Origin: Nitrospinota bacterium
GTDB taxonomy: Bacteria > Nitrospinota_A > UBA7883 > JACRGQ01
Assembly (NCBI GenBank): GCA_016217735.1
Contig: JACRGQ010000052.1
Span: 1,838-65,837, forward strand
Reading direction: 5' to 3'
Length of the DNA: 64,000 nt
The notes beneath the pieces are model-generated. The model saw only the letters and a program-made list of their open reading frames with translations, did no database searches and was not told the DNA's origin. Both the position numbers and the translations under genes were made by a program. The stretch's first letter is position 1, and each line of letters opens with the position of its first letter. Shown here one piece after another: positions 4,429 through 58,807 of this stretch.

Positions 4429-4448
4429 AGCCTTTATCATTAGGGCAT

Positions 4449-16779: not shown

Positions 16780-16845
16780 GATAAATAATCCTGCGGGATT
16801 CCTCTTATGTCTTATCCGCAAAGTATATTATCATTTGGGGATAGC

Positions 16846-18240
16846 ATGGAAAACATATTAGTAGTGGACGATAACCAGGACAATCTGGACCTCATCAGCC
16901 TGATGCTGGAGCGCAACGGCTTCGGCCATGTCACCGCGCTCTCGGGCATGGAGGCGTTGGTGAAGATGGAAAAAGAGCCCTTCCGGCTGGTTATCAGCGA
17001 TCTGATGATGCCGCAGATGAACGGCATCCAACTCCTGGAAAAGGTGAAAGAATCCTGGCCTGAAACCGAGGTGATCATCGTCACCAGCGTCGGCATCGTG
17101 AAGCCCGCGGTGGAGGCGATGAAGAAGGGGGCCTATAGCTATATCCAGAGGCCGTTTGACGATGATGACCTGGTGTTAGAGGTGAAAAAAGTCCTCGACT
17201 ACGTGAATATGCGTAAAGAGAACACCAGTCTGCGCGAAGAGCTGGATCAGGTGCGCCATGGCAACCTGATGATCGGCAATACGCCGCTGATCCGGGCCAT
17301 TCAGGAGCTTATCGGCAGCGTGGCCAACACCAACGCCACGGTGCTGATCATGGGGGAAAGCGGCACCGGCAAGGAACTGGTGGCCAACGCCCTCCACAAC
17401 GCCAGCGGCCGGAAAAGAGGCCCGTTCGTCAAGGTTAACTGCGCCGCGCTGGCCGAATCGTTGCTGGAAAGCGAGTTGTTCGGCCACGAAAAGGGGGCCT
17501 TCACGGGGGCGATTGCCCAAAAGAAGGGGCGTTTTGAGATGGCGGACGGCGGCACCCTGTTTCTTGACGAAATAGGGGATATTTCTCCCGCCATCCAGGT
17601 GAAACTGCTGCGGGTCTTGCAGGAGCGCGAGTTTGACCGCGTGGGAGGTGCCAAGCCGGTGAAGACCGACGTGCGCATCGTCAGCGCCACGAATAAAAAT
17701 CTGGCCGAAGAGGTTAAGCGGGGAAGATTCCGGGAAGACCTTTTCTACCGCCTCAACGTGATTTCCGTCAATATGCCCGCGTTGCGCGAGCGCAAGGACG
17801 ACATCGCTGAGTTGGCCCGGTATTTCTTGGAAAAGTACAAGGCTGATGTGAACAAGAACATCGCGGGCATCACGGATAAGGCGATGCGGGCGCTTGTCAA
17901 CTACGACTGGCCCGGCAACATCCGCGAACTGCAAAATGTGATCGAGCGGGCGGTGGTGCTGGCGAACAGGCCGATGCTGGACCTGGCCGACCTGCCCGAC
18001 AACATCAGCAAAGGCCCGCAGCGCATTTCCATCGCCGCGGGCGAGGCGTTGCCGACGCTGAAAGAAGCCAAGCACCTCTTCGAGAAGCAGTATCTGGAGA
18101 AGGCGTTGCTGATGCACAAAGGGAACATATCGCGCACCGCCGAGAAGATAGAACTCGCCCGTAAAAACCTGCAAGACAAGATCAAGACCTACGAAATCGA
18201 CATTGACCGGCTGCTTGAGGGAAAGGCGGAGGAGGGGTAG
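16846..18240 (+). CDS. Sigma-54-dependent transcriptional response regulator (NtrC family: REC-AAA+-HTH)
   Basis: REC (ILVVDDN...ISDLMMPQMNG), then Walker A GESGTGKE, the GAFTGA motif and a C-terminal Fis-type HTH. ATG 16846 is preferred over 16807. Confidence 0.85.
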   Translation: MENILVVDDNQDNLDLISLMLERNGFGHVTALSGMEALVKMEKEPFRLVISDLMMPQMNGIQLLEKVKESWPETEVIIVTSVGIVKPAVEAMKKGAYSYIQRPFDDDDLVLEVKKVLDYVNMRKENTSLREELDQVRHGNLMIGNTPLIRAIQELIGSVANTNATVLIMGESGTGKELVANALHNASGRKRGPFVKVNCAALAESLLESELFGHEKGAFTGAIAQKKGRFEMADGGTLFLDEIGDISPAIQVKLLRVLQEREFDRVGGAKPVKTDVRIVSATNKNLAEEVKRGRFREDLFYRLNVISVNMPALRERKDDIAELARYFLEKYKADVNKNIAGITDKAMRALVNYDWPGNIRELQNVIERAVVLANRPMLDLADLPDNISKGPQRISIAAGEALPTLKEAKHLFEKQYLEKALLMHKGNISRTAEKIELARKNLQDKIKTYEIDIDRLLEGKAEEG

Positions 18241-18242
18241 CG

Positions 18243-19370
18243 CTACGGGCGGACGGGGGTTTCGGCGTAGAGCGCCAGCACCTTTTTCATGACCGCGTCT
18301 TTGGCGTACCGTTCCAGCGCGCCGGGGAGGTTTTCCCGCGCTTTGTTTTTCGCCCCTTCCATGTCGTTCAGCACACGGATGATTCCTTCCGCCAGCGAGG
18401 CGTGGTCTTTCGGTTCAACCAGCGTGCCGTATTTGCCATAGCCGAGCTGTGCGGGGGTGCCGCCGGCGTTGGTGCCGATGATCGGAATGGCGCAGAGTTC
18501 GGCCATCATCATGCTGGTGGAACAGGTCTCAAAGTGGGAAGGGGAGAGGAACACATCGAAGCAGTTGAGCACGCGTGCCTGCTCCGCTCCGCGCTGGTCG
18601 CCCAAAAACTTCACCTTGCCGGCAATGTCAAGCCGCGTGATCTCATCTTCCAGCCGCTTTTTTTCGCCGCTATCGCCGGCGTGGACGGTTTCATCCCCCA
18701 CCAGCAGCAAGCGCGCCTCCGGATGCTTTGCCAAAACGGCGGGCATCGCCCGCACCGCCTCCATCTGTCCTTTGAGCGCGTCAAGCCGCCCTAAAATGCC
18801 GAGCACGCGGTCGTTCGCGCTGAAGCCGAGGTTGTTTTGGCGGAACGCCTCGTCACGGGCCGGGCGGTAGATGCCGGTATCGAGGCCGTAGGCCACTATG
18901 CTTAATTGATCCTCCGTTATCGGCAGGTTTTTGAGGGCCGCCTCGCCCAGCACCGGCGAGCAGACGAATATTTTGCTGATGTGGCGGTATTCAAACCGAT
19001 GATAGAGGTCTTTCTTCGGGCCGGGGACGAACATCTGGAGCCAGAGGAATACTTTTATGTCCCGCAACAATGTGGCGACGGGGATGACCAGCCCCAGGTC
19101 CTCGGTGTGTGTTACCTGAACAACCTTGAAGCCGTGAGACCGGATGATCCGCCGGAGTTCAATCATCACCCGGAGGTCGGCGTACGCGATGATCTTTTGG
19201 AACGCAATATGCGGAATGCCGTTAGCCGCGAGTTCGCGCTCAATCGGGAATCCCTTGCGGCAGACGAACAGCATCTCGTGCCCGGCGCGGTGCAGGTTGA
19301 CGGCGAGGTCGTAAGAGTTCTTTTCCAGCCCCCCCCACGAGCGGGAGAAATTAATGTGGAGCGATTTCAT
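18243..19370 (-). CDS. Glycosyltransferase family 4 (GT-B, group 1)
   Basis: C-terminal GT1 domain with the E-x7-E region. Start at the internal Met (MKSLHINFSRSWGGLEKN), which removes the Arg-rich N-terminal extension. Confidence 0.75.
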   Translation of the reverse strand: MKSLHINFSRSWGGLEKNSYDLAVNLHRAGHEMLFVCRKGFPIERELAANGIPHIAFQKIIAYADLRVMIELRRIIRSHGFKVVQVTHTEDLGLVIPVATLLRDIKVFLWLQMFVPGPKKDLYHRFEYRHISKIFVCSPVLGEAALKNLPITEDQLSIVAYGLDTGIYRPARDEAFRQNNLGFSANDRVLGILGRLDALKGQMEAVRAMPAVLAKHPEARLLLVGDETVHAGDSGEKKRLEDEITRLDIAGKVKFLGDQRGAEQARVLNCFDVFLSPSHFETCSTSMMMAELCAIPIIGTNAGGTPAQLGYGKYGTLVEPKDHASLAEGIIRVLNDMEGAKNKARENLPGALERYAKDAVMKKVLALYAETPVRP

Positions 19371-19375
19371 CGGTG

Positions 19376-20734
19376 TCAGGCGTCCGCCGGGCGGTAGCCA
19401 ATGCCGGCGTATTCGATGGAGGCAAAGTTTTCTTTTTTCAGCATTCGGCGGGTGTCGACCAAAAATGCGCGTTTCATGAGTGATGTCAGTTCGGGGGCGC
19501 TTATTTCCTTGAACTGCTCCCAGCGGGTTATGATGACGGCGGCTTCCGCGCCATGGACGGCATCGCGCCACGAGGGGGCATGGGCCAGCGTTTCGCAACC
19601 GGGATATTTATTGAATTCGCTTTTCACTATCGGGTCGAAGGCCGTTACCGCCGCGCCTTGCCGCAGCAGTTCGCGCACCAGCGGGATGGCGGGGCTTTCG
19701 CGCGTGTCGTCGGTTTCCGGCTTGAAGGCGAGCCCCAGCACCGCGATTTTTCTTCCGCTGAGGTTCCCAAGCCGGTTTGTTACCAGCGATACAATTTTGA
19801 AGGGCTGCGCTTCGTTGACACTTGTGATCTGATCCAAAATGCCCTGCCCCATCCCCTTGTGGTGGGCGAAGGCGGCCAGCGCTTTGACATCCTTGGGGAA
19901 GCAGCTCCCCCCGAAACCGCAACCGGCTTCGAGATAACTCAATATACCGGGGTTCACCCTCTTGCCGGCCACCACCGGGTTGAGGCGGTAATCAAGGTGT
20001 ACCCCTTTCATCACATCGCGTATATCGATGCCGCCGATGGCGCTGGCGAGGTTGGCGATTTCATTCGAGAAGGAGATCATCAACGGCAGCAGGGCGTTGG
20101 CGGTGTACTTTATCATTTCAGCGGTGCGGGGATTGGTTTCCACTACCGTGGCGGAAGTCCACGCGTGTACCTGCCTCATCTTCTCCAGCGTTTTTGGGTC
20201 GGTGGCGCCGATAATGATGCGGTCGGGGTTCATGAAATCTTCGATGGCGCTCCCTTCGCGCAAGAACTCGGGACTGGAGCAGAGGCCGAATCCGGTTCCC
20301 GCTTTAAGGCCCGATTCTTTTTCAAGGATGGGCAGCACCACCGTTTCGGTGGTGGTGGGCACCACCGTGCTTTTTACCGTGATCACCGGGTAAGGCCCGG
20401 CGGTATGCAGCAGGCGGCCCAATTCCGCGGCGGCGGCCTTTACATAGGTAAGGTCTATCTCTTTGCCGTCAAAGGGGGTGCCAACCGCGAGGAAAATGAC
20501 CTCGGCGCCGGTGATGGCCGCCGCCAAATCGGTGGTGGCGGAGAGTCGTCCGGCGGCGCGGGTTCGTTTGAGAAGTTCTTCAAGGCCTTTTTCGTGGATC
20601 GTGGGTGTTCCCGCGTTTATTTTGTCGACGATCTGTTGGGCCTTGTCCATGCAGATGACGGTGAAGCCCTTGTCAGCCAGACATGCGCCGGTGACCAGTC
20701 CCACATAGCCGCTGCCGACAACTGTTATTTTCAT
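19376..20734 (-). CDS. ugd: UDP-glucose 6-dehydrogenase (nucleotide-sugar dehydrogenase family)
   Basis: MKITVVGSGYVGLVTGACLA Rossmann N-terminus, a catalytic Cys region (GFGGSCFPKD) and a 452-aa length typical of Ugd. Confidence 0.8.
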   Translation of the reverse strand: MKITVVGSGYVGLVTGACLADKGFTVICMDKAQQIVDKINAGTPTIHEKGLEELLKRTRAAGRLSATTDLAAAITGAEVIFLAVGTPFDGKEIDLTYVKAAAAELGRLLHTAGPYPVITVKSTVVPTTTETVVLPILEKESGLKAGTGFGLCSSPEFLREGSAIEDFMNPDRIIIGATDPKTLEKMRQVHAWTSATVVETNPRTAEMIKYTANALLPLMISFSNEIANLASAIGGIDIRDVMKGVHLDYRLNPVVAGKRVNPGILSYLEAGCGFGGSCFPKDVKALAAFAHHKGMGQGILDQITSVNEAQPFKIVSLVTNRLGNLSGRKIAVLGLAFKPETDDTRESPAIPLVRELLRQGAAVTAFDPIVKSEFNKYPGCETLAHAPSWRDAVHGAEAAVIITRWEQFKEISAPELTSLMKRAFLVDTRRMLKKENFASIEYAGIGYRPADA

Positions 20735-20737
20735 TGA

Positions 20738-21850
20738 TTATTTTCCCATTTTAATCTGCGCACTATACCACAGCAGCGCGCGGCGCAGCCCTTCGCCAAG
20801 GCTCACTTTGGGATTGTACCCCAACAGGCGGCGGGCCTTTTCGATGGAAGGGCGGCGCCGGTCGGGATTATCCACCAGATAGTTTTTGTCCTCGCTCGTC
20901 CCGGTGATGAGTTTAAGCCCGCCGATGCCGAGTTCGCGTTCGGCTACATTCAGAAGCGTGAGCGCCATGTTACGTATGGAGATTTCCGGCGTTTCGATGC
21001 CAATGTTAAATGACTCGCCGTTATGGTTGGACAGCAACATCAGAAGGTAGCCGCTGATGGCATCGGCTATGTAGCAAAAGGTGCGGGTGGGGGAGCCGTC
21101 GGAAAGCATCACGATGTTTTGGCCGTTTAAGATGTTCTTGCAAAAGTCGGGGATGACCCGGCGGTCATCGATTGAAAGGCCCGGCCCGTAGTTGTTGAAC
21201 GGGCGGGCGATTTTCACCGGCACGCCGCGGGACTGGTGGAAATTCACGCAGAGCGTTTCGCCGTAGCGTTTCGATTCGTCGTAGCAGGCGCGCGGGCCGG
21301 TGCAGGAGACAAGGCCGCGGAAATCCTCTTTGGTCGGGATGAATTCAGGGGGCGGGTCGCCGTAGATTTCGCTGCTGGAGAAAAAGAGGAAACTCTTGAG
21401 CGGCCGGGCCGATTTCATTTTTACCGCCGCGTGGTCAAGCAGGATGCGCAGGCCGATAACGTTGGCATCCATCGTTTCGATGGGGTATTGGCGGTAATAC
21501 ATGGGGGAGGCGATGGATGCGGCGTGGATGATGTAGTCGATTTCCCCCAGCGCGGCGGGATCGAATTGCGTGATGTCCGCTTTCACCGTGCGGATGGCGC
21601 CGCTTCGCTCAAACGGCGCAAGCCACGGAGGGACGCCCCGGATGAAGTTGTCCAGGCAGATAACGCGGCATTTATTTTTCAGCAGCGTGGCGTTTGCGTG
21701 GGCGAAGAAATTGATGAGGTAATAACCCAAAACACCGGCGCCGCCGGTGAGGAGGATGGTGGCGTCTTCCAGTTGTTGAATGCGTTCCCCCAGCGCGTCC
21801 GCGATTTCTTGCATATCGTTCGAGACAATGGTTGTATCCGATGTAGGCAT
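20738..21850 (-). CDS. Extended SDR epimerase/dehydratase, UDP-glucuronate decarboxylase (UXS/ArnA C-domain)-like
   Basis: TGGAGVLG nucleotide-binding motif. The catalytic YDESKRYGETL matches the UXS YDEGKR motif. Adjacent to ugd. Confidence 0.6.
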   Translation of the reverse strand: MPTSDTTIVSNDMQEIADALGERIQQLEDATILLTGGAGVLGYYLINFFAHANATLLKNKCRVICLDNFIRGVPPWLAPFERSGAIRTVKADITQFDPAALGEIDYIIHAASIASPMYYRQYPIETMDANVIGLRILLDHAAVKMKSARPLKSFLFFSSSEIYGDPPPEFIPTKEDFRGLVSCTGPRACYDESKRYGETLCVNFHQSRGVPVKIARPFNNYGPGLSIDDRRVIPDFCKNILNGQNIVMLSDGSPTRTFCYIADAISGYLLMLLSNHNGESFNIGIETPEISIRNMALTLLNVAERELGIGGLKLITGTSEDKNYLVDNPDRRRPSIEKARRLLGYNPKVSLGEGLRRALLWYSAQIKMGK

Positions 21851-22391
21851 ATTCCCGTTTTCCGTGGAAGGTTTAGCGCGACGTTAAAACTGGTTGATTA
21901 TAGCCCGAATAAAAGGATCTCTTCAATCGGCGAACACCGCGCTTCAGACGGGAAAGGCCGCAATGGCGGCACAGACCCGGTTCACGTCGTCGTCGTTTAG
22001 GCCGGTGTGCAATGGAAGCGACAGCCACTTCCCCACCCGGCGGAACCATCGCCTGCACCGCAAGGTGTACCGGCGCCGTGCCGCTGTTCATGGTGGCGAC
22101 ATTGGCGGGAGGCACGCCCAAAAAGGCGGCGGCCTCTTCGGCGCCGACGATTGAGCGGGAAAGACGGATTTTGCTCTTCATTCGCGACAGTCTATACCGG
22201 CGCATGCCCACGCCGAAACATTCAGGATGATGGGTGAGTACTGAAGTGCATCAGGCCGGTGCAATGTTTTATCTCACCAATGACACGGTATTGCACGGAT
22301 TGCGTTACATGAAATAGCTAAGTCTTTGTTAAGAAGCGGCGTCAGCTTGGCTCATAAATTGCATAAATTTTATGGATGGGGTATGTTCGGG

Positions 22392-22419
22392 TTGATATTT
22401 TTAAGGGCCGGTATATAAT
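22392..22419 (+). promoter_or_regulatory. Sigma70-like promoter (TTGATA-N16-TATAAT) upstream of the first sensor kinase
   Basis: Read directly from the sequence within an AT-rich intergenic region about 70 nt upstream of ATG 22487. Confidence 0.4.
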
Positions 22420-22486
22420 TATTATAAATGAGACTTTAAAGGTAGAATAAGTAATTTTTGGTCGTTGTGTGGGCGGAGGTGAATTC

Positions 22487-24646
22487 ATGAAATTTGCCAC
22501 AAAGCTGACATTGCTGTTTTCAGGACTTTTCCTGATTCTCTGTCTTTTTATAACGGCCATCGTCACCTCTTCAAGCACCGGTATTCTCGAACGCACCATC
22601 CAAACCCAGATGGAACGCCGGACGGCGGAAAAAATGGACAGGATCGACAAATATCTTTTTGAGCGGAACCTGGATACCAAGATGATGTCGACCGATTCCG
22701 TCTTAAAATCGAAAAATCCTTCTCCGGATCTCATTGCGGCCCGGTTAAAGGAACTTTCAAAAAACAGCGGCAGTTACATTTCGCTCTCTCTTTACGATAT
22801 GTCCAGAAAAAGGATTGTCGACACGTTGGGTCTGAATGTGGGAAAAATCCATTCGCTGTCTGAATACTGGCCCGACATCGAATCAGGCAAAGATGCCGCT
22901 TTCGACATGTATTATTCCGATTCTCTCCAACTTCCCTTATTCCACTTTGCGAAGGTCGTAAAAAATGAAGCTGGCGCGCGCGAGGGAGTTCTGGTGGCAA
23001 CGGTATCCACCGAATGGCTGGATGAAATCGTGAAGATCACGGCGATGCCGGAGATAAAAGTGGAGATAGTGAACAGAAACGGGCTGGTGATCTATTCCAG
23101 CTACGATCCGAACAGCATCCTGAAGGAACGCTCAATTTACTGGGAATATATAAAGGCCCGGATTGAGCGGGGAACCATGAGTAAAGGTTCCCGCATACGG
23201 ATTTCCGGCATGGAAGAGGAAATCGTGATCTACGGCCAGGGAAAAGGGTACAAAGATGACACGGGGCACGGATGGACCCTTATAGCCCATGTGCCCAAAG
23301 AAGTGGTTTTCGCGCCAGCCATCGAATTGCGGAACCGCCTGATAATCATCATGTCCATAATCGGCGGCTTCAGCCTGCTGGCGGTGCTGCTCTTTGCCCG
23401 CACCGTAGCAAGTCCCCTTATCAAGCTGAGCGCCGCCGCCGAGGAAATTGGCAGGGGTAACTTGGACGTGAAAGTGGCGGTTGATTCCAACGATGAGGTG
23501 GCAGTGCTGGCAAAGAATCTTAACGCGATGGCGAAAAATCTTTCCGCCTCCCGCACGGCGCTGGAAAAAGCCAAGGAAGAGGCGGAAGAGGCGACAAGGC
23601 TGAAGGATAAATTTGTCACGCTCGTGTCGCATGACCTGCAAACGCCGCTTGTCGGCATGCTGGGAATGATGCATCTTCTTCAGGAACAGCCGGAAATACG
23701 GCCTGAAAGCCGGCATTTTATTGTTCAGGCTGTTCAAGGCAATAAGCGGATGTTGCACATGATAGACCAACTGCTTGACATCAATCGCATCCGGTCGGGA
23801 AAGTTGCAGTTGAAATTGCGCTATTGCAGCGGTACCAATATTGTCCGGGATGCTGTGGCAACCGTTGAAGGCATGGCGGCGGAGAAGGGGATCGCCATAC
23901 AGAATATGGTGCCGGACAAGACGATGGTGATCGCCGATCCCGTTTTTTTGCAGCAGGTTTTTTGCAACCTGCTGACCAATGCGGTCAAATTCAGCGGGCC
24001 GGGGAAAGCCGTGACCATCAAATATTCCCCCGGTAAAAGCATGGTTTTTAAAGTTGAAGACAGCGGCGTTGGCATCCCTCCCGATTCCATAAAGAAGATA
24101 TTCAGCTATCACGAAAAGACATCGACACATGGAACGCGGGGAGAGGCCGGCAATGGCTTTGGCCTTCCCCTTTCCGCCGACATCATGGAGGCGCTCAATG
24201 GCAAGTTGAAAGCGGAATCCCGGCCGGAAGGCGGCGCCTCTTTTTCCGTCATTTTGCCAAATCCCGTGCCAAAGATACTTATTATGGAAAGCAGCGCCGG
24301 TTCATGCGATGCGTTGAAGGGTTTGCTGGAGGAACGGGGATTCACGGTGACGGCCAGCCCCCACGCCCTTAAAATCCTGGAAATGCTGAAAGGGGAACGG
24401 TTTGACTTTCTGCTGGTGCAACTCTCCGGCACAAAGGAGACCGGGGCCGAGCTTTTTCGGTTGGTCGCCCGTGATAAGACGTTGGAAGGGATGCCGGTGT
24501 TGGCGATAGATGATGGCAAATGCAATGATGATTCAAAATTAATCAAGGGCTGTGAAACTATGGCTCGTGGCGCCACGGAGACCGCGGCGGTTATCGAGAG
24601 AATATGCTCCGTGCTTATGGGCGAGGGTTCGACACGGAAGGGGTAA
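22487..24646 (+). CDS. Hybrid sensor histidine kinase HK1: TM-periplasmic Cache-like domain-TM-HAMP-HisKA-HATPase-degenerate receiver
   Basis: Two TM helices flank an approx 270-aa periplasmic domain. HAMP, H-box VSHDLQTPL, N/G boxes and a C-terminal REC-like domain lacking the acidic pocket and phospho-Asp (IMESSAG, FLLVQLSG). The GC content is well below the flanking DNA. Confidence 0.8.
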   Translation: MKFATKLTLLFSGLFLILCLFITAIVTSSSTGILERTIQTQMERRTAEKMDRIDKYLFERNLDTKMMSTDSVLKSKNPSPDLIAARLKELSKNSGSYISLSLYDMSRKRIVDTLGLNVGKIHSLSEYWPDIESGKDAAFDMYYSDSLQLPLFHFAKVVKNEAGAREGVLVATVSTEWLDEIVKITAMPEIKVEIVNRNGLVIYSSYDPNSILKERSIYWEYIKARIERGTMSKGSRIRISGMEEEIVIYGQGKGYKDDTGHGWTLIAHVPKEVVFAPAIELRNRLIIIMSIIGGFSLLAVLLFARTVASPLIKLSAAAEEIGRGNLDVKVAVDSNDEVAVLAKNLNAMAKNLSASRTALEKAKEEAEEATRLKDKFVTLVSHDLQTPLVGMLGMMHLLQEQPEIRPESRHFIVQAVQGNKRMLHMIDQLLDINRIRSGKLQLKLRYCSGTNIVRDAVATVEGMAAEKGIAIQNMVPDKTMVIADPVFLQQVFCNLLTNAVKFSGPGKAVTIKYSPGKSMVFKVEDSGVGIPPDSIKKIFSYHEKTSTHGTRGEAGNGFGLPLSADIMEALNGKLKAESRPEGGASFSVILPNPVPKILIMESSAGSCDALKGLLEERGFTVTASPHALKILEMLKGERFDFLLVQLSGTKETGAELFRLVARDKTLEGMPVLAIDDGKCNDDSKLIKGCETMARGATETAAVIERICSVLMGEGSTRKG

Positions 24647-24720
24647 ACACCATGGAATATGCATCCCTTGCGGTTCTTGCCGCGGACGATTTTGCCGCAC
24701 ACTCGGAGTGAAGGGCGAAT
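23560..24720 (+). repeat. Duplicated transmitter module + junction, copy A (pairs with 25750-26890)
   Basis: Direct repeat of about 1.1 kb at roughly 80-90% nt identity, spanning HisKA-HATPase-pseudoREC and the short downstream junction. Confidence 0.7.
24652..24711 (+). pseudogene. Vestigial 5' fragment (19 codons) homologous to the start of the REC-GHKL gene at 29050
   Basis: AACACCATGGAATATGCATCCCTTGCGGTTCTTGCCGCGGACGAT aligns at about 38 of 45 nt with AAGCACCATGGAACATGCAGCCCTTACGGTTCTTGTCGTGGACGAC at 29041-29090. It encodes MEYASLAVLAADD versus MEHAALTVLVVDD. Confidence 0.6.
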
Positions 24721-26830
24721 GAAGATACAACCGGCATCGGCAAAAATCAAAACAAGGATAACATTCCTCGTTATAACCCTGCTGGTGCTTTCTTTGGCGG
24801 CCATCGGCGTCAGCAACTATGTTCTCTACCGCATCGCGCTGAACCAGGCGGGCGAGATGCTTGGGTATACGACAAAAAGCAACGCGCTTTTTTTTGAGTA
24901 TTCCTTCCGTCATCTGGAAGAAGAAGCCAAGCATTCCGGCGTCCCTTATAGTGTTGATCACGCCCTCGCGCTTTACCGCGAACGCTTGAAAGCCGGCGTC
25001 GTGTTCGGCGAGACGGGGGAGAGCGTCATTGCGCGGCGGGAGGGAGATTCAATCCGCTTCTTTGTGCATAACCGGCTCAAGAATTCCGGCGCTCCCGTTG
25101 TTATTCCGTTCGATTCGAGCGGCACGGCAAAGCCGATGAAACTGGCGTTGGCCGGAAAATCGGGGACGGCAATAACCACCGATTACCGCAACATCACGGT
25201 GCTGGCGGCATACGAGCCGCTTCCCGCGATGAACCTCGCGATCGTAACCAAGATGGACCTTGCCGAGATACGGGAACCCTTTTTAAAAGGGGCCGCGCAA
25301 TTATTCTTTGTAATTTTTGTCATTATCATTGGCGGCGCATTCGTCTACCTCAAAGTCATCACGCCGTTGATACCGCTCCTTATGGAGAGTGAAGAACGGC
25401 TGATGACGCTTGTTAACGGCATCGATGAATCGCTGCTTTTTATCGACCCCGCCGGAAAGGCTCTCATAGTCAATGAAACCGCCGCCAATCGAATGGGCCA
25501 ATCCCCCTCCGAACTGATCGGGCATGATGTTTTCAGTTTTTTTCCACCGGAGATCGCGGCCTCAAGGCGGAGGAAATTAGGGGAGGCGCTGGAAACCGGC
25601 AAGGCGGTGCATTTCGATGATGAGCGGAATGGGCGTCATTATCATAACTCGTTTTTTCCGGTGATGGACGATACGGGACGAAACATCGTTTCGATCGTTA
25701 TCCATGCCCGCGACGTCACCGAGCAGATTAATGCGAAAAATGAAATCCTGGCGGCGAAGGAACAGGCGGAAAAGGCGACCCGGCTGAAGGATAAATTTGT
25801 CATGCTCGTGTCGCATGACCTGAAAACACCGCTTGTCGGCATGCTGGGAATGATGCAGCTTCTTCAAAAACGAACGGGAAACCCGGAGGACAACAGGCAT
25901 TGCATCGATCTGGCGGTTCAATCCAACCAGCGGATGATACGGATGATAGACCAACTGCTTGACATCAACCGCATCCGGTCGGGGAAGCTGCATCTGAAAT
26001 GCCGCTATTGCGATGGCTCCGGCATTGTCCGTGAGGCCGTGGCGATTGTTGGGGACATGGCGGCCCAGAAAGGAATTACCATGCAAAACATGGTGCCGGA
26101 CAGGACTATGGTGATTGCCGATCCCATTTTTCTACAGCAGGTTTTTTGCAATCTGCTGACCAACGCGGTCAAATTCAGCGGGCCGGGGAAAGCCGTGACC
26201 ATTAAGTTTTCCCCGGGTGAAAAGATGGTTTTTGCCGTTGAAGACGACGGCGTTGGCATCGCTCCCGATCTCATGAAGAGCATATTCAGCTATCACGATA
26301 AGACATCGACCCGCGGAACGCATGGAGAAGCCGGAACGGGTTTTGGCCTTCCCCTTTCCGCCGACATCATGGAGGCGCTCAACGGCAAGTTGAAAGCCGA
26401 ATCCCGGCCGGAAGGCGGCACCTCTTTTTTGGTTATTTTGCCAAACCCCGCGCCAAAGCTCCTTATCATGGAAAGCAGCGCCGGTTCATGCGATGCGTTG
26501 AAGGGTTTGCTGGAGGAGCGGGGATTTACGGTGACGGCCAGCCCCCACGCCCTTAAAATTCTGGAAATGTTGGAAGAGGAGAGGTTCGATTTCCTGTTGG
26601 TGCAGCTCTCCGGCATAAAGGAGACCGGTACCGAGCTTCTTCGTTTGGTCGCCCGCGATCAATCGCTGAGGGGGATGTCGCTGCTGGCGATAGGGGATAG
26701 CGTATGTTACGGAAAAAATGGGGCTGATAGCGATATTAACGATATAATGAATTGCGGCCCGGAAACCGCGGCGGTTATCGAGCGAATATACTCCGTGCTA
26801 ATGGGCGAGGATTCGACATGGAAGGGATGA
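24719..26830 (+). CDS. Hybrid sensor histidine kinase HK2: TM-periplasmic domain-TM-PAS-HisKA-HATPase-degenerate receiver (tandem paralogue of HK1)
   Basis: Distinct N-terminal sensor (shorter periplasmic domain plus a cytoplasmic PAS). The transmitter and pseudo-receiver are about 80% identical in amino acids to HK1 and highly similar at the nucleotide level. ATG 24719 follows GGAGTGAAGGG. Confidence 0.8.
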   Translation: MKIQPASAKIKTRITFLVITLLVLSLAAIGVSNYVLYRIALNQAGEMLGYTTKSNALFFEYSFRHLEEEAKHSGVPYSVDHALALYRERLKAGVVFGETGESVIARREGDSIRFFVHNRLKNSGAPVVIPFDSSGTAKPMKLALAGKSGTAITTDYRNITVLAAYEPLPAMNLAIVTKMDLAEIREPFLKGAAQLFFVIFVIIIGGAFVYLKVITPLIPLLMESEERLMTLVNGIDESLLFIDPAGKALIVNETAANRMGQSPSELIGHDVFSFFPPEIAASRRRKLGEALETGKAVHFDDERNGRHYHNSFFPVMDDTGRNIVSIVIHARDVTEQINAKNEILAAKEQAEKATRLKDKFVMLVSHDLKTPLVGMLGMMQLLQKRTGNPEDNRHCIDLAVQSNQRMIRMIDQLLDINRIRSGKLHLKCRYCDGSGIVREAVAIVGDMAAQKGITMQNMVPDRTMVIADPIFLQQVFCNLLTNAVKFSGPGKAVTIKFSPGEKMVFAVEDDGVGIAPDLMKSIFSYHDKTSTRGTHGEAGTGFGLPLSADIMEALNGKLKAESRPEGGTSFLVILPNPAPKLLIMESSAGSCDALKGLLEERGFTVTASPHALKILEMLEEERFDFLLVQLSGIKETGTELLRLVARDQSLRGMSLLAIGDSVCYGKNGADSDINDIMNCGPETAAVIERIYSVLMGEDSTWKG

Positions 26831-26890
26831 ACAACATGGAACACGTCCCGTGGCCAAATTTCCGCATACTCAAAGGAGTTCGATAATTTA
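25750..26890 (+). repeat. Duplicated transmitter module + junction, copy B
   Basis: See copy A. For example GACCTG(C/A)AAAC(G/A)CCGCTTGTCGGCATGCTGGGAATGATGCA is shared by both copies. Confidence 0.7.
26836..26886 (+). pseudogene. Second, shorter vestigial fragment of the REC-GHKL gene 5' end (MEHVPW...)
   Basis: AACAACATGGAACAC after the HK2 stop matches AGCACCATGGAACAT at the HK3/REC-GHKL junction, then diverges. Confidence 0.45.
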
Positions 26891-29044
26891 ATGGCATCCA
26901 CTGGCAAGCGAAAAGCCGCCGGTAAAAACAGCGTGCGCGCCGCTCCCCGTGTATCCCAAAAAGCCGCTCCATCCAAACCGGCCAAAAAACCGGCGGCGTC
27001 CCAAAAACGGTTGAAAGACAAAGACGGGAATATTCCTCCCGCATTGGACACAACTGGCGCGATATACGCCATCGGCGGCGTGGGCGCCGAAATTACCGGC
27101 ATTAAAAAGACGGAAGAACTCCTGCGGACGCACCAGGCCGAACTGGAAATGCAGAGCGAGGATCTGCGCCAAACGCGGGAGGATCTGGAAGTTTCCCGCG
27201 CCAAGTATTACGATCTCTATAACCTTGCGCCGGTCGGCTATTTCACCATCAGCGGGCGGGGTTTGATCGCTGAAGCGAACTTCACGGCCGCCTCTTTGCT
27301 TGGCATGGAAAAAAACCTCCTGATCAGGCAACCGTTCACGCGATTTATCGCCGCCGAGCATCAGGATAGATACTACTTGTCCCACAAAGAACTCCATGAA
27401 ACAGGCAAATCCCAGTCGTGCGAGTTGAGGATTGCGCGCCAGAACGGCGTTCCATTCTGGGCGCGTTTGGAAGCGGCGGCCGCCGTGGATGCTGAAAGCG
27501 GAGCGCCCGTGTGCCATGTCGCGATGATCGACATAACCGAACGGGTGTACGCCGAAGTGCGGATGCGGCTGCTGCAAAGCGCCATGGATCAGGCGGATGA
27601 AACGGTTATTATCACCGACCCCGATGGCGCCATCGAATACGCCAATGCCGCAGCCGAAAAAAAGTCCGGTTACCCCCTAAACGCCCTGCTGGGAAAACCC
27701 CCCCGGATATTCAAAAGCGGTATTCACGATGCGGCCTTCTATGAACGTCTGTGGCGCACCATCAAATCCGGCCACATCTGGAGGGGGAACATCATCAACC
27801 GGCGGGCCGACGGCTCCCATTACGAGGAAGAAGTCACCATCAGCCCGGTGCTGGGGGACGGTGGCGTGATTACCCATTTCATCGCCATCCGCCATGACAT
27901 CACCGAGCAAAAGATGCTGCGTCAGCAGCTCATCCACGCCGAAAAACTCTCCTCCATCGGCACCTTCGTGGCCGGTGTGGCGCACGAGTTGAACAACCCG
28001 CTTACCGCCGTTATCGGTTTTTCCAACGACCTCCGGCAGCGCACCGACCTGCCCGAAGATTTGCGGCACACCCTTGGCGTTATCGCCGATCAGTCGAAGC
28101 GGGCGGTGGGGGTGGTGAAAAACCTGCTCTCCTATTCGCGCCCCCACAAGGTGGAGCGGCGCACGCTGGATATCAACAAACTGCTGGAAAACACCGTCGG
28201 CATCCACCGCTACCGGCTGTCGGCCGACAACATCCCCGTGGAAACGGCGTTCGCTTCCGATCCTTTGCCGGTTTACGCGGACGCCGGACAGGTTCAGCAA
28301 GTGGTGGTGAACATCTTGCTCAACGCCCAGGCCGCCATCAAATCGGCCGGCGCTGACGGCGTTATCCGCATCGCCACCCGGCGGGAGAGCAAGTGGATGG
28401 AAGATATGGCGGTCATCACCATCAGCAACAGCGGCCCTCCGATCCCCATTAAAGATATTGACCGGATATTCGTCCCCTATTTCACCACCAAGGGGGCGGG
28501 GGAGGGAACCGGATTGGGGCTTTACGTCGCTTATAATATCGTGAAAGATCATCAAGGGGAACTGCGGGCCGAAAACCTGCCGGGGGGCGGAGTGGCGTTC
28601 CACATCACCTTTCCCGCCAGCGCGGAAAAACGTGCCGCCACCGCGCCCGTTTCCCAAAACGGCAAAATCACCCCCGGCATTAAAGTGCTGGTGGTGGACG
28701 ACGAAGCGCCGGTGCGGGATTGGCTCACCGGCATGTTGCTGCGGCATAGAGTATTCGCCGTGGGGGCTGGGAGCGTCAGGGAAGCCATTGAGTATTTGCA
28801 AAATGGCAGTTTCGACGCCATTGTTTCGGACTACAAAATGCCGGAGAAAGATGGTATTGATTTATACGGCTGGTTGGCGGAACAGCGGCCGGAGACGGCA
28901 AAGCATTTTATGTTCCTGACCGGGGCGGTGGAACCCCGGCTGATAGAATTTTGTGAAGGCCAAAACCTGGCCGCATTGATAAAACCGGTGGGCGAAGAGG
29001 CGATCATCGCCGCCATCGCGCAAATGCTCGCGAAAGAAGGATAA
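26891..29044 (+). CDS. Cytoplasmic hybrid sensor histidine kinase HK3: basic Lys/Ala/Pro-rich N-tail-2xPAS-HisKA-HATPase-receiver (intact)
   Basis: No TM segment. The N-terminal tail is histone-H1-like (KAAPSKPAKKPAASQKRLK). H-box AHELNNPL. The REC domain carries the acidic pocket VVDDE and D in IVSDYKMPEKDG. Confidence 0.8.
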   Translation: MASTGKRKAAGKNSVRAAPRVSQKAAPSKPAKKPAASQKRLKDKDGNIPPALDTTGAIYAIGGVGAEITGIKKTEELLRTHQAELEMQSEDLRQTREDLEVSRAKYYDLYNLAPVGYFTISGRGLIAEANFTAASLLGMEKNLLIRQPFTRFIAAEHQDRYYLSHKELHETGKSQSCELRIARQNGVPFWARLEAAAAVDAESGAPVCHVAMIDITERVYAEVRMRLLQSAMDQADETVIITDPDGAIEYANAAAEKKSGYPLNALLGKPPRIFKSGIHDAAFYERLWRTIKSGHIWRGNIINRRADGSHYEEEVTISPVLGDGGVITHFIAIRHDITEQKMLRQQLIHAEKLSSIGTFVAGVAHELNNPLTAVIGFSNDLRQRTDLPEDLRHTLGVIADQSKRAVGVVKNLLSYSRPHKVERRTLDINKLLENTVGIHRYRLSADNIPVETAFASDPLPVYADAGQVQQVVVNILLNAQAAIKSAGADGVIRIATRRESKWMEDMAVITISNSGPPIPIKDIDRIFVPYFTTKGAGEGTGLGLYVAYNIVKDHQGELRAENLPGGGVAFHITFPASAEKRAATAPVSQNGKITPGIKVLVVDDEAPVRDWLTGMLLRHRVFAVGAGSVREAIEYLQNGSFDAIVSDYKMPEKDGIDLYGWLAEQRPETAKHFMFLTGAVEPRLIEFCEGQNLAALIKPVGEEAIIAAIAQMLAKEG

Positions 29045-29049
29045 GCACC

Positions 29050-29952
29050 ATGGAACATGCAGCCCTTACGGTTCTTGTCGTGGACGACGATGAAGCGGCA
29101 CGCCTTTACCTCGCCATCGTCCTTCGCAAAAACGGCTTCGCCGTGCTGGAAGCGCCGGACGGGGCCGCGGCTATAAAGATCATGCGGGAGCGGGACAAGG
29201 AGATAGCCGCGGTGATCAGCGATATCCGCATGCCCAACATCGACGGGTTGAAGCTGGCCGAGCTGAACTACCAGAACGGCTTCCTGCCGTTTATTGCCTG
29301 TACGATGATCTCGGACGCGGCTGCGGCGCTTACGTTGCTCAAATTCGGCGTGCGCGACTATGTGGTGAAGCCGGTGGAGGAAACCGTGCTGGTGAACACG
29401 GTGCGCGACGCCATCGGGCGGCGCAATCTCCCCCGCCTGTTCGCCGACGACGAGACCCCCCTCCCCGGCAATATGGGGGTCATCACCATCTCGGCCCGCT
29501 TTGCCGCGGTACACCGTGCGCGCGGATGGCTGGAGTTGAAGGCAAGCGGCATCATGTCGCCGGTCGAGCAGCGTCAATTTCTCGCCTTTGCTTCGGAATT
29601 CCTGATGAATGCCTACGAGCACGGCAGCCTGATGCTCACGGAAGAGGAAAAATCGGCGTTGCTGGAAAGCGGGGGATACCACGATGAATTGCGCCGCCGG
29701 GAACTGGAGTGCAAAGCGAAGATAGAAGTGGCGGTCTCCATCGTGGGGAACGAGATCGCCATCAGCGTGACCGATCCCGGGTATGGATTCGATTATAAAC
29801 GGTATCAGGAGATGTCCGAGGCCGAAATGCTCGACCGCCTTATCATGCCGAACGGGCGCGGCATCCAGATGGCGATGCAGTACTTCGACAGCATCACCTT
29901 CAGCAAAGGCGGGGCGGGGGTGCTGCTCACAAAAAAGATGCCGAAAGGTTGA
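29050..29952 (+). CDS. Receiver domain fused to anti-sigma-factor-type GHKL Ser/Thr kinase-like domain (HATPase_c_2, RsbW/SpoIIAB-like)
   Basis: REC (VLVVDDDE...ISDIRMPNIDG). C-terminal N-box NAYEHG, G1 VTDPGYGF and G2 NGRGIQM. Confidence 0.7.
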   Translation: MEHAALTVLVVDDDEAARLYLAIVLRKNGFAVLEAPDGAAAIKIMRERDKEIAAVISDIRMPNIDGLKLAELNYQNGFLPFIACTMISDAAAALTLLKFGVRDYVVKPVEETVLVNTVRDAIGRRNLPRLFADDETPLPGNMGVITISARFAAVHRARGWLELKASGIMSPVEQRQFLAFASEFLMNAYEHGSLMLTEEEKSALLESGGYHDELRRRELECKAKIEVAVSIVGNEIAISVTDPGYGFDYKRYQEMSEAEMLDRLIMPNGRGIQMAMQYFDSITFSKGGAGVLLTKKMPKG

Positions 29953-29982
29953 TGGCGGCCGGAAACCACGTTTGTCATATCA

Positions 29983-30010
29983 TTGAACGCGGGAAGGGAA
30001 GATGTATAAT
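29983..30010 (+). promoter_or_regulatory. Near-consensus sigma70 promoter TTGAAC-N16-TATAAT
   Basis: Read directly from the sequence, about 60 nt upstream of the 30070 operon. Confidence 0.5.
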
Positions 30011-30069
30011 TTCGAAAGCGGCGGCACGGGCGTTTCCTCACTTCTTGAGCGTAAAGGATTCTGGCGGAC

Positions 30070-30486
30070 ATGGTTAAAAACAAACTCGTCGTTCATACTC
30101 ACCACATCGGCAGCCATTTCACCAATGGGCTAATGCCGGTTGCCGTGTTGTTGCTTACGCTCTATTTCATTACAGGCATCCAGAGTTTTGAAACCGCTTC
30201 ATTCTACTGCATCGTATTTGCCATGATCGCCAGTCCCCCGGTTTTCTTTAGCGGCCTTATCGACTGGCTCACGCGGTTTCAGGGGCGTTCGGCCAGCATT
30301 TTCAATCATAAGCGGCTGTTTGGCGTCCTTTTTATGCTAGTATCAATTCTGTTGGTGGTCTGGCGCCTCATGAGGCCGGAAGTGGCCGCGCCGGCAAGCG
30401 AATTGCGTTATGTTTACTTTGCGATGGTATGCGCCGATACGGGGTTTGTGGTGTATCTGGGCTATCTGGGAGGCAAGTTCATCTGA
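30070..30486 (+). CDS. Small 4-TM membrane protein (DUF2231-like)
   Basis: 138 aa with four hydrophobic helices. Translationally coupled (ATGA) to the ferritin-like gene. Confidence 0.5.
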   Translation: MVKNKLVVHTHHIGSHFTNGLMPVAVLLLTLYFITGIQSFETASFYCIVFAMIASPPVFFSGLIDWLTRFQGRSASIFNHKRLFGVLFMLVSILLVVWRLMRPEVAAPASELRYVYFAMVCADTGFVVYLGYLGGKFI

Positions 30487-30716
30487 TGTCGAGCGGGGAG
30501 CGCAAAGACCTGGAGCGAAAAATCGAGGCGCTGATTATCGCCATTCCGCGCGAGGCGGAATCGTATGACTTTTATCAGCAACTGGCCGGGGAATATCCCG
30601 ACCAGGCTTCGAAGGAAATGTTCACCTTCCTGGCCGGGCAGGAAAAAAAACATCAGGAGATGCTGGAGCGTATCTTGGCTGATCTTGAAAAAAAACTGGC
30701 AAAGTTGCCACGTTGA
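30486..30716 (+). CDS. Ferritin-like/rubrerythrin half-domain protein (single ExxH)
   Basis: 76 aa, helical, with ESYDFYQQLAGEY and EKKHQEMLE motifs. Too short to be a full diiron protein. Start at the internal ATG 30486. Confidence 0.45.
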   Translation: MSSGERKDLERKIEALIIAIPREAESYDFYQQLAGEYPDQASKEMFTFLAGQEKKHQEMLERILADLEKKLAKLPR

Positions 30717-30742
30717 CCGCGATGTGAAGAGGAGAGCACGGT

Positions 30743-30904
30743 ATGGCTAAATGGGTATGCACTATTTGCGGTTATGTTTATGATCCCGCCGCCGGCGATC
30801 CAGACAGCGGTATCGCTCCCGGCACCTCTTTTGAAGACATTCCCGGAGATTGGGTCTGTCCCGCCTGTGGCGTCGGCAAAAAAGACTTCAGCAAGGTCGG
30901 CTGA
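30743..30904 (+). CDS. Rubredoxin
   Basis: 53 aa, [15 protein letters not shown]...[13 protein letters not shown], with canonical CxxCG...CPxCG iron ligands. RBS GAGGAG upstream. Missed by the ORF track (under 60 aa), whose 30774 ORF is in the wrong frame. Confidence 0.85.
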
Positions 30905-30954
30905 TTCCCGATACGTTCAAGACGATCATACAAACAGGCGAAAGAGGGAAAATC

Positions 30955-31998
30955 ATGGCCGGCCCGGAGCAGGTGGATAAAAAGAAATTATCGATTCTCG
31001 TAGTTGACGATTTTCCCAACATGCGCAGGACGATAAAGAATATGCTCCACTCGCTGGGGTACATGAAGCTCACCGAAGCGGGGGATGGCGACGAGGCAAC
31101 CGAAACCATTGATCGGCTGCATACCACCCCCAGCCGGATACAGTTAGTCATCCTGGACTGGAACATGCCCCGCGTACACGGCATCGACGTGCTCCGTTTC
31201 ATACGAAACAGCCCGCGCCATATGCTCCATGTGTCGGTGTTGATGGTCACGGCCGAAAACTGGGCCGAGGAAATCATCGAGGCGGCGGAGGACAACGTGG
31301 ACGGCTACATCATCAAGCCGTTCGTGGCAAAAACGCTGGAATTGAAGATCAACCAGATTCTGGAGAAGCAATTCAAGCCGACCAAGCTGGAGCGGATATT
31401 CCGCGACGGGATCGTGCTGATGAACAAAAAGGAATTTGGCCAGGCCAAGGCGAAGTTCGAAGAACTTCTGGCCCAGAACGCCAACAGCCCCCGCTCGCTG
31501 CGGGAACTGGCCAAAATCGCCGCGCAGGATGGAGATAACAAAGCGGCCGAGGAGTACCTGAAAAAGGCGCTGGAGATCAACAAGGATTATACCAAGGCGA
31601 TGCAGGACCTCGGCGCGATCTACGCCAAAGAGGGGCGTGACGACGAGGGGATCAAGATGCTGGAAGGGGCGCTGAAACTGAGCCCGCGCAACGCCGACCG
31701 GCTGGCCCTTTTGGGGAACGTTTATTTCAAGAAGCAGCGCTATCAGGAGATTATCGATATGCTGGAAAAGGCCCGCCGCTACGGCCTTTCCATGATCCGC
31801 TACGACATCGATGTGCTGCTGGCCGCGGCCAACCTCGAAATGAAGAACGTGGCGCGCGCCAAGGAGATACTGTTGGGGGCCGTCGGCAACGCCGCGGATA
31901 AGGACAAAGTAAAAGAAGAGATAAAAAAGGCCATCGCCGCCGCCTCCATATCGGAGCCGGACAAGGAAGAACTCACCAAAGATATCGAATCGGCCTGA
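30955..31998 (+). CDS. CheY-like response regulator fused to TPR repeats
   Basis: REC (ILVVDDFP...ILDWNMPRVHG) followed by TPR-like repeats (AKFEELLAQNANSPRSLRELAKIAAQDGD...). Start at MAGPEQ with RBS AGAGGGA. Confidence 0.75.
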   Translation: MAGPEQVDKKKLSILVVDDFPNMRRTIKNMLHSLGYMKLTEAGDGDEATETIDRLHTTPSRIQLVILDWNMPRVHGIDVLRFIRNSPRHMLHVSVLMVTAENWAEEIIEAAEDNVDGYIIKPFVAKTLELKINQILEKQFKPTKLERIFRDGIVLMNKKEFGQAKAKFEELLAQNANSPRSLRELAKIAAQDGDNKAAEEYLKKALEINKDYTKAMQDLGAIYAKEGRDDEGIKMLEGALKLSPRNADRLALLGNVYFKKQRYQEIIDMLEKARRYGLSMIRYDIDVLLAAANLEMKNVARAKEILLGAVGNAADKDKVKEEIKKAIAAASISEPDKEELTKDIESA

Positions 31999-32019
31999 CC
32001 GCCGGGCTCGGCGGGCCTA

Positions 32020-33095: not shown

Positions 33096-33344
33096 ATGGA
33101 AAAGATCACGATGTATACCGCCGCATGGTGTGGGGATTGCCGGGCGGCAAAACGTTATCTCGGCGACAAGGGAATTCCCTTTGACGAAGTTGATATCGAA
33201 CGGCACCCGGAAGCGGTGCGGACGGTTGTCGCGGCGCGCGGTAAGCGGGTGCTGCCGACACTTGAATACAAGGGGAAATTCATCGACGGGAACCATTTTA
33301 ATGTGGATAAGTTTGCCAAAGACCTTGCGGAACTTCTTGGCTGA
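33096..33344 (+). CDS. Glutaredoxin-like protein (NrdH/Grx family, CGDC active site)
   Basis: 82 aa, ITMYTAAWCGDCRAAKRYL, thioredoxin fold. Confidence 0.7.
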   Translation: MEKITMYTAAWCGDCRAAKRYLGDKGIPFDEVDIERHPEAVRTVVAARGKRVLPTLEYKGKFIDGNHFNVDKFAKDLAELLG

Positions 33345-54839: not shown

Positions 54840-54848
54840 GGAGATGCC

Positions 54849-56648: not shown

Positions 56649-56659
56649 GGGAATTACCC

Positions 56660-58685: not shown

Positions 58686-58807
58686 ACATTACCCGCATCC
58701 CTCGGTATTTACCCAAGAAAGCGATGATAGATTGATAATTGTAACAGGAATTGTTCCGCTGTCATTACTTTTTTAAATGAAAATCAGCGCGGCATCCGGC
58801 CAGCGGC

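Follow-up and report, generated by a model that had tools for sequence, protein, structure and literature searches.

Eight genes lie together on the plus strand at 22.4–32.0 kb of a 64,000-nucleotide stretch of contig JACRGQ010000052.1, part of a Nitrospinota metagenome-assembled genome (MAG); the whole stretch is referred to below as the window. As called from open reading frames (ORFs) and Pfam domains, they encode three sensor kinases (HK1, HK2 and HK3), a response regulator that joins a receiver to an ATP-binding domain of the Bergerat (GHKL) type, and then a DUF2231 membrane protein, a ferritin-like half-domain (the half-ferritin), a rubredoxin and a CheY-TPR protein. The question raised by this locus is whether these genes form a single signalling system. 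An original prediction, made from the sequence alone, had described them as one self-contained system of sensing, relay and output tied to redox proteins. The gene-by-gene content of that description is borne out by the ORFs and their domains. The claim of a single system is not supported, as the kinase block and the DUF2231 operon do not occur together in relatives outside this lineage. The locus is probably two transcriptionally and evolutionarily separate modules, A and B, which adjoin only in this lineage. The multi-kinase redox “system” is not a unit and is not to be carried forward as a new system.

Synteny of the Locus

The original prediction had proposed a search of other genomes for co-occurrence of the receiver-HATPase_c_2 gene with the DUF2231 operon. 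Among 86 loci of regulator relatives, none has a match to DUF2231, the half-ferritin or rubredoxin within ±10 kb. Conversely, 33 DUF2231 loci were compared, with the DUF2231 alignment as the metagenome query, and a full receiver-GHKL gene lies near DUF2231 in only one of them, L090 (loci of relatives are cited by such numbers). L090 stems from an independent assembly and sequencing run and is 91.3% identical to window positions 27529–31326, colinear across the junction between regulator and operon. Misassembly of the junction was considered and is ruled out by this colinearity. The adjacency of the regulator and the operon is real, but it is confined to the lineage of the window and L090.

The regulator of the window is 91% identical to that of L007, 86% to that of L004 and 85% to that of L008, and the operon is absent downstream in all three. 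Homology with these loci ends at 29952–29958, at the regulator stop codon. Homology with the operon locus of L089, where the upstream genes are those of cobalamin synthesis, begins at 29981. This sets the synteny junction at 29953–29980. The left neighbour of the operon varies between relatives: in L089 it is flanked by cobalamin genes, in L091 by a gene on the opposite strand, and in L093, L096 and L097 by an ortholog of an NtrC-type regulator.

In the window, this NtrC-type gene (REC-sigma54-HTH by Pfam, where REC denotes a receiver) is at 16807–18240 (+), outside the eight-gene locus. In L093, L096 and L097, its ortholog (65–72% identity; 72% in L093) is followed directly by DUF2231, with no kinases between. 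The gene order of L093, namely FlgM, fn3, trpF, cNMP, tilS and NtrC, is that of the window at 10.6–18.2 kb, joined to 30.07 kb, and continues with DUF2231, the half-ferritin, rubredoxin and CheY-TPR. Contexts of this kind, in which the genes are not co-conserved, had been named by the original prediction as evidence that would speak against it, and they are found here on three contigs. Sequence comparison thus points to an ancestral order in which the NtrC-type regulator stood directly to the left of the operon.

Since L093, L096 and L097 join NtrC directly to DUF2231, the intervening 18241–29980 is best read as an insertion of about 11.7 kb into a conserved backbone. The block holds GT1, UDP-glucose dehydrogenase (UDPGDH) and epimerase genes, a DegT remnant, HK1 to HK3 and the LvrC-like regulator; module A and the three polysaccharide genes would thereby have come to lie between the NtrC-type gene and module B. 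L004 and L007 have the left junction of the window, with NtrC beside GT1, and in them the GT1, UDPGDH and epimerase genes and the kinases are syntenic with those of the window. No direct or inverted repeats of at least 9 nt are shared by the two junctions, and no integrase or transposase families turned up in domain scans of the block. The DegT remnant is an internally deleted pseudogene of a DegT/DnrJ-type aminotransferase at 21953–22181 (−), which retains residues 1–83 and 348–373 of the 378-amino acid gene of L004. Between tilS and the NtrC-type gene, Pfam identifies a REC-HD (HD_5) response regulator at 15682–16821 (−). L093 and L097 have no such gene there, which makes this a second signalling gene gained in the neighbourhood by lineage-specific insertion.

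In L004, L007 and L008, homology resumes about 1.5 kb beyond the regulator as the inverted equivalent of window positions 58604–64000. This segment contains kdsA, pyrG, kdsB and SBP_bac_5, and the edge of the match at 58603–58604 is at a tRNA-Pro gene (58609–58685). The arrangement points to a large rearrangement in these three relatives, one of whose breakpoints falls at the tRNA gene. A simple inversion from 29953 to beyond 64000 was rejected, as the sequence of the relatives past kdsA does not match the window below 58604.

The LvrC-Type Response Regulator

The central gene of module A encodes a response regulator of 300 amino acids at 29050–29952 (+). Pfam assigns it a receiver (Response_reg, 74 bits) and a HATPase_c_2 domain, the latter marginally, at 28.0 bits against a cut-off of 27.4, and the predicted fusion of a receiver to a GHKL domain is in this respect upheld. 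In an alignment of 33 homologs of 26–92% identity, receiver residues K107 and P108 do not vary, and D58 and T85 are kept in at least 90% of the sequences. Also invariant are E183, N187 and E190-H191-G192 of the N box, D242, G244, G246 and F247 of the G1 box (D242xGxGF), and G269-R270-G271 of the G2 box. The unvarying ATP-binding motifs show a GHKL domain that is not degenerate, which answers a possibility that the original prediction had raised against itself.

The AlphaFold2 (AF2) model of the regulator has a mean predicted local distance difference test score (pLDDT) of 89.3. Its top match in the Protein Data Bank (PDB) by Foldseek is 9qih, the structure of LvrC, with an E-value of 2.6e-17 and both domains spanned. 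The TM-score is only 0.43 and the root-mean-square deviation about 15 Å overall, a weak global fit that may come from the two domains being oriented differently relative to each other. At the sequence level, the family profile aligns with 9qih over its full length (residues 3–295, E 1e-31), and one built from the C-terminal domain alone gives E 5e-14 with 9qih and E 3e-4 with RsbW (PDB 6m36). Judged from profiles and model, the regulator is a full-length homolog of LvrC, with a canonical receiver and an RsbW-like Bergerat domain.

LvrC of Leptospira interrogans (LIC11110) was described in April 2026 as a receiver fused to a Bergerat domain like that of RsbW/SpoIIAB (PMC13269768). The kinase LvrB phosphorylates it specifically, its crystals contained ADP:Mg, and its authors propose that it acts as a receiver-regulated anti-sigma factor (PMC13269768). 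The receiver-Bergerat architecture is thus already known, though very recently and from a single protein, and for this part of the locus the earlier suggestion of an undescribed combination does not hold (PMC13269768). The two proteins share the two-domain architecture, a length of about 300 amino acids, colinear full-length homology and the motifs NAxEHG...(S/T)xxxK..LL, DxGxGF and GRGI. The window also resembles the LvrA/LvrB/LvrC system in having a PAS-containing kinase upstream, one hybrid kinase and no DNA-binding output. It differs in the low identity of about 20%, in phylum, in having no LvrB-type receiver-first kinase, and in its set of two pseudo-receiver membrane kinases and one PAS hybrid, with no Hpt domain found.

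RsbW and SpoIIAB share with the regulator the Bergerat fold, the N, G1 and G2 boxes and HATPase_c_2 membership above the cut-off, to which the RsbW profile match may be added. They differ in that the window protein is fused to a receiver and no STAS or sigma factor gene is encoded nearby. In addition, the helical segment between the N and G1 boxes measures 55 residues in the regulator (N187 to D242) and is probably shorter in RsbW and SpoIIAB. HsbR of Pseudomonas, CrsR of Shewanella and SypE of Vibrio fischeri combine a receiver, a PP2C domain and HATPase_c_2, with a STAS partner nearby. A receiver controls an RsbW-like domain in those proteins, as it would in the regulator, from which the PP2C domain and the nearby STAS gene are absent. 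A metagenome protein of 506 amino acids, P0071, matches the receiver of the regulator weakly and has the order HATPase_c_2-REC-SpoIIE/PP2C, the architecture of V. fischeri SypE. P0071 shows that RsbW-like domains under receiver control are found in more than one domain order. A tblastn search of the regulator loci with its PP2C part, aimed at partner-switching phosphatases, gave zero matches.

Spread and Neighbours of the Regulator Family

A motif scan over one genome per species found at least 523 relatives of the regulator, in Nitrospinota, Nitrospirota, many Proteobacteria, Spirochaetes, Ignavibacteria and other groups. The LvrC-type class is thereby extended from one Leptospira protein of 2026 to more than 500 species-level genomes. 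Nitrospinota MAGs carry two to three diverged LvrC-like paralogs each (L001, L004 and L005 in one assembly; L007 and L018; L008 and L011; L013, L014 and L017). Some paralogs adjoin type IV pilus or pseudopilin genes (L004, L005, L006).

The neighbours were surveyed in 82 loci of the family, with 145 small neighbouring genes. A histidine kinase is the most frequent immediate neighbour. The gene directly upstream of the regulator carries HisKA/HATPase_c in 22–24 of the 82 loci and PAS in about 17, and a kinase is found directly downstream in 10. In Nitrospinota, an HK3-like kinase stands directly upstream in L001, L002, L007, L010, L012, L013 and L090. An HK1/HK2-type kinase occupies this position, with no HK3 between, in L004, L008 and a contig from ERZ27297709. 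The conserved unit is a PAS kinase and the regulator, and the kinases and the receiver-GHKL protein of the window look like a real signalling unit.

Genes of partner switching are rare in these neighbourhoods. SpoIIE/PP2C is the next gene in two of the 82 loci, and STAS and Sigma70_r4_2 each account for two of the 145 small genes; L070, with a REC-SpoIIE gene near the regulator, is an example of such a neighbour. In the window, a scan of all ORFs of at least 70 amino acids found no STAS, sigma-70-family or PP2C gene, in agreement with the earlier statement that neither STAS nor sigma factor is present. The sole anti-sigma gene in the window is FlgM (anti-sigma-28) at 10578–10916 (−), which is unrelated. 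The statement that no DNA-binding output is encoded locally stands for 22.3–32 kb and not for the window, which contains the NtrC-type gene at 16807–18240 and a TetR-family regulator at 38140–38748. Because the LvrC-type class is widespread, usually beside PAS kinases and almost never beside sigma or STAS genes, it can be seen as a common and little-studied way for two-component sensing to reach an output that does not bind DNA. This frames the search for the missing partner.

The Sensor Kinases and the Proposed Pathway of Module A

HK1 is encoded at 22487–24646 (+), where a GGAGG Shine–Dalgarno sequence precedes the ATG, or possibly from a GTG at 22469. Its Pfam domains are dCache_1, HAMP, HisKA, HATPase_c and a C-terminal pseudo-receiver, and transmembrane (TM) segments are predicted at about residues 6–24 and 289–307. 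HK2 is encoded at 24659–26830 (+), though its true start may be the ATG at 24719, and has PAS, HisKA, HATPase_c and pseudo-receiver domains. Predicted TM segments at residues 30–48 and 206–224 flank a predicted periplasmic domain of about 155 amino acids, for which no family match was found. HK3, at 26891–29044 (+), has two PAS domains, HisKA, HATPase_c and a canonical receiver (Response_reg, 48 bits), with no TM segment predicted. The TM predictions thus agree with the earlier description of two membrane kinases and one cytoplasmic double-PAS kinase. The stop codon of HK3 is five nucleotides from the start codon of the regulator.

The kinase and pseudo-receiver halves of HK1 and HK2 share 82.5% nucleotide identity, and the duplication runs beyond the stop codons, which marks the two genes as tandem paralogs. 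This is the only repeat in 21.8–32.1 kb. The surroundings of the phospho-acceptor histidine, read from the translations, are near-identical in HK1 and HK2 and different in HK3.

The description of all three kinases as hybrids applies to HK3, which has a working receiver, and not to HK1 or HK2. The receiver-like domains of the latter reach only 21 and 18 bits, where Pfam sets its receiver cut-off at 30.2. At the positions of CheY D12, D13, D57, T87 and K109, they have E, S, Q, D or G, and G or C, whereas the HK3 receiver retains DD, D, T and K. The numbering follows what we take to be the sequence of E. coli CheY; the comparison with the four canonical receivers of the window is independent of it. 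The orthologs of HK1 and HK2 in L004 have lost the same residues. The C-terminal domains of HK1 and HK2 are accordingly predicted to be non-phosphorylatable pseudo-receivers and, as the two kinases end in such domains, only HK3 would be able to act as a hybrid kinase. The cyanobacterial kinase CikA carries a pseudo-receiver; HK1 and HK2 likewise end in a receiver-like fold without the phospho-acceptor aspartate, a likeness drawn by description only.

A sigma-70-like site with the arrangement TTGATA-16-TATAAT is placed at 22392–22419 (+), ahead of the kinase genes. It is a consensus match only, agreeing at 11 of 12 positions, and is the best site in 21.8–33.8 kb. A sigma-54-like −24/−12 element, TGGCTCATAAATTGCA, is present upstream of HK1 at 22348–22363 (+), with one mismatch to the consensus. 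It is one of two such sites in the window, where matches are overall no more numerous than expected by chance. In L008, the HK1 ortholog is preceded by a similar element, TGGTTCATAAATTGCA (1774–1789), which is absent in L004 and L007. As a weak lead, the element might connect the kinase operon with the NtrC-type regulator encoded at 16807–18240.

Under the two-module reading, module A (22.4–29.95 kb) would be an operon of the three sensor kinases and the LvrC-type regulator. HK1 and HK2 would perceive two periplasmic signals through their different sensor domains, and HK3 a cytoplasmic signal through its two PAS domains. One or more of the three would phosphorylate the regulator at D58. This could free or re-orient the ATP-binding RsbW-like Bergerat domain and so alter its engagement with a partner, presumably a sigma factor or an anti-sigma/STAS-type antagonist encoded elsewhere. 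The output would be a change in transcription achieved without a DNA-binding domain, as proposed for LvrB and LvrC in Leptospira. The window yielded no Hpt domain, and the receiver of HK3 would therefore more probably serve as a phosphate sink or have a regulatory role than act as a step in a relay.

The DUF2231 Operon

Module B (29.98–32.0 kb) comprises the remaining four genes. A promoter-like site at 29983–30010 (+) has the arrangement TTGAAC-16-TATAAT with an extended −10 sequence, TGTATAAT, at 30003–30010. The latter is kept upstream of DUF2231 in L090, L089, L091, L097 and L095 despite differing upstream genes. The expectation of a sigma-70-type operon promoter is met by this consensus-like site and its conservation across genomes, and the four genes behind it, which had been grouped as a four-TM protein, a ferritin-like half-domain, rubredoxin and CheY-TPR, can be confirmed as a conserved unit with its own promoter. 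A sigma-54 promoter before DUF2231 was considered as a tie to the NtrC-type neighbour and was found in none of the window, L093, L096 and L097. No terminator-like site is predicted between the modules, at 29953–30069.

The DUF2231 membrane protein is encoded at 30070–30486 (+) and matches its Pfam family at 31.7 bits. Its AF2 model is a bundle of four long helices (pLDDT 85). Invariant residues include H9, H11, H12 and H16, which form an HxHHxxxH motif before the first helix, C47, D65 and W66, and the C-terminal YLGYLGGKFI is invariant as well. Foldseek against the PDB returned generic four-helix bundles only, all at E above 0.06; as the structural matches are generic, no haem or metal site can be inferred. 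A search for functional literature on DUF2231 found none apart from one incidental mention.

The start codon of the half-ferritin gene, at 30486–30716 (+), overlaps the DUF2231 stop codon. The product, of 76 amino acids, is rubrerythrin-like and matches positions 1–61 of the 137 in the Pfam Rubrerythrin model. It has a single ligand set, E23...E53xxH56, and E23, Y30, E53 and H56 are present in all 17 short homologs. The representative library contains 992 relatives, most of which are 140–180 amino acids long and match the query twice. Stand-alone half-ferritins of 75–89 amino acids number about a dozen among the top 150 of these relatives. Given that such stand-alone forms occur, natural split half-ferritins outside encapsulin systems make up a small family.

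The rubredoxin (30743–30904, +; 53 amino acids; Pfam 87.7 bits) has the expected cysteine pairs, C6xxC9 and C39xxC42. The CheY-TPR protein (30955–31998, +; 347 amino acids) consists of a receiver and TPR repeats by Pfam. Across the 33 DUF2231 loci, the half-ferritin gene follows DUF2231 directly in 27, down to 31% DUF2231 identity. Rubredoxin comes next after the half-ferritin in 15, and CheY-TPR follows rubredoxin in six (L089–L093 and L097, the last at 46% identity). DUF2231 and the half-ferritin are a deeply conserved pair. In two relatives, the pair is adjoined by superoxide dismutase and rubrerythrin genes.

In the encapsulated ferritin EncFtn, the ferroxidase site is formed at the interface of two two-helix subunits (PMC5012862). 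The half-ferritin resembles it in its two-helix form and its set of one E and one ExxH, with which a di-iron site is possible only between two subunits. It differs in matching the NCBIfam EncB family at only E 9e-5 (22.5 bits against a cut-off of 90) and in its conserved partner, which is the DUF2231 membrane protein, often with rubredoxin. No encapsulin families were found in any scan of the window. The half-ferritin differs from rubrerythrin in that it does not have a complete four-helix di-iron domain and the rubredoxin is a separate gene. VieB of Vibrio cholerae is a receiver-TPR response regulator. The CheY-TPR protein is like it, by description only, in combining a receiver and TPR without a DNA-binding domain, and differs from it in being tied to the DUF2231/half-ferritin/rubredoxin operon.

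As the half-ferritin carries a single E/ExxH set, a complete di-iron site would require a dimer. It is proposed that the protein dimerises to form this site, with rubredoxin as its electron carrier. Module B, transcribed from its own sigma-70-type promoter, would then be a membrane-associated di-iron/rubredoxin unit for redox protection against oxygen, peroxide or iron, and the orphan receiver of CheY-TPR may serve as a phosphorylation-controlled adaptor. With overlapping genes and rubredoxin often following, DUF2231 and the half-ferritin are a candidate new module of oxidative-stress or iron handling and the most interesting lead from this locus. A glutaredoxin-like gene (82 amino acids, CGDC) is found at 33096–33344 (+) between accA and an M23 peptidase gene, and at the same position in L091; it is a third small redox protein close to the operon.

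Alternative Explanations

That the eight genes are nevertheless one system, in which three kinases feed the receiver-GHKL and CheY-TPR proteins and these together control the rubredoxin and ferritin-like proteins, is very unlikely. The genes are adjacent and on the same strand with no predicted terminator at 29953–30069, the arrangement is identical in the independent assembly L090, and CheY-TPR is an orphan receiver in need of a kinase, where three kinases face one adjacent regulator. Yet neither block accompanies the other elsewhere (none of 86 and one of 33 loci), the operon is missing downstream of the regulator even in L007, at 91% amino-acid identity, as in L004 and L008, and the operon, CheY-TPR included, stands without a nearby kinase in L089, L091, L093 and L097 and has its own conserved promoter. 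A functional link between kinases and operon alone, through read-through or phosphorylation in the lineage of the window and L090, is just as improbable. It is distinctly unlikely that module B is both an undescribed receiver-controlled, membrane-anchored di-iron redox machine, which could reduce peroxide or oxygen or oxidise iron, and functionally linked to the upstream kinases. The gene order of the window might instead be ancestral, with the kinase block deleted or moved elsewhere, so that the adjacency is old and possibly functional. The NtrC–GT1 junction common to the window, L004 and L007 fits such a history, as does the further rearrangement of L004, L007 and L008, which have gained the tRNA-Pro/kdsA/pyrG block. 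It is made seriously doubtful by the direct joining of NtrC to DUF2231 in L093, L096 and L097, by the different left neighbours of the operon in L089 and L091, and by the need for several precise deletions in place of a single insertion. The two-module reading has its own difficulties. Its direction, insertion as opposed to deletion, is parsimony over three metagenome contigs only; the undetected terminator leaves room for read-through between the modules; and the adjacency shared with the independent L090 makes functional coupling possible there. LvrC, to which the regulator is about 20% identical, is the only family member with demonstrated biochemistry, and the function of module B is inference only, its DUF2231 model having no significant structural match.

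Within module A, the wiring could be divided, with HK3 alone cognate to the LvrC-like regulator and HK1 and HK2 signalling mainly to the NtrC-type and/or REC-HD regulators, which would control the polysaccharide genes or the kinase operon through a sigma-54 promoter. This is rather unlikely, although the five-nucleotide gap between HK3 and the regulator, the recurrence of HK3-like kinases as upstream neighbours and the near-identity of HK1 and HK2, unlike HK3, around the phospho-acceptor histidine are in its favour. So are the synteny of NtrC, the GT1/UDPGDH/epimerase genes and the kinases in L004 and L007 and the sigma-54-like element before HK1 here and in L008. However, an HK1/HK2-type kinase abuts the regulator in L004, L008 and the ERZ27297709 contig and so probably serves it too, and the sigma-54 site is a single weak match, absent in L004 and L007, from a window count not above chance. 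A separate issue is the activity of the Bergerat domain, which might be a serine kinase acting on a STAS antagonist encoded elsewhere, as in partner switching, and not a receiver-gated device for sigma sequestration. The invariance of all its ATP-binding motifs and the binding of ADP:Mg by LvrC (PMC13269768) suit a kinase, as do the HATPase_c_2 score above the Pfam cut-off, the RsbW profile match and the few loci near partner-switching genes (SpoIIE/PP2C in 2/82, STAS in 2/145, and the REC-SpoIIE gene of L070). STAS and PP2C neighbours are nonetheless rare and the window has none, and RsbW and SpoIIAB do both jobs, so that the two mechanisms are not exclusive. A serine kinase role is a tentative but credible option, somewhat less probable than its opposite.

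Other Features of the Window

An Rfam scan of the whole window gave tRNA-Pro as the only match. A FlgO-like match arose from pooled small ORFs; FlgM is otherwise the only flagellar gene seen in the window. Subunits of pyruvate:ferredoxin oxidoreductase are encoded within 1127–5732, followed by a multihaem cytochrome c of 427 amino acids (MtrC/MtrF-like, with paired-CXXCH matches). The content of this region suggests that the Nitrospinota lineage is anaerobic or microaerophilic. At 49072–57577, the window carries a complete cluster for fatty-acid beta-oxidation, with a large acyl-CoA dehydrogenase, a thiolase, a FadB-like protein and an acyl-CoA synthetase, together with a patatin-like phospholipase.

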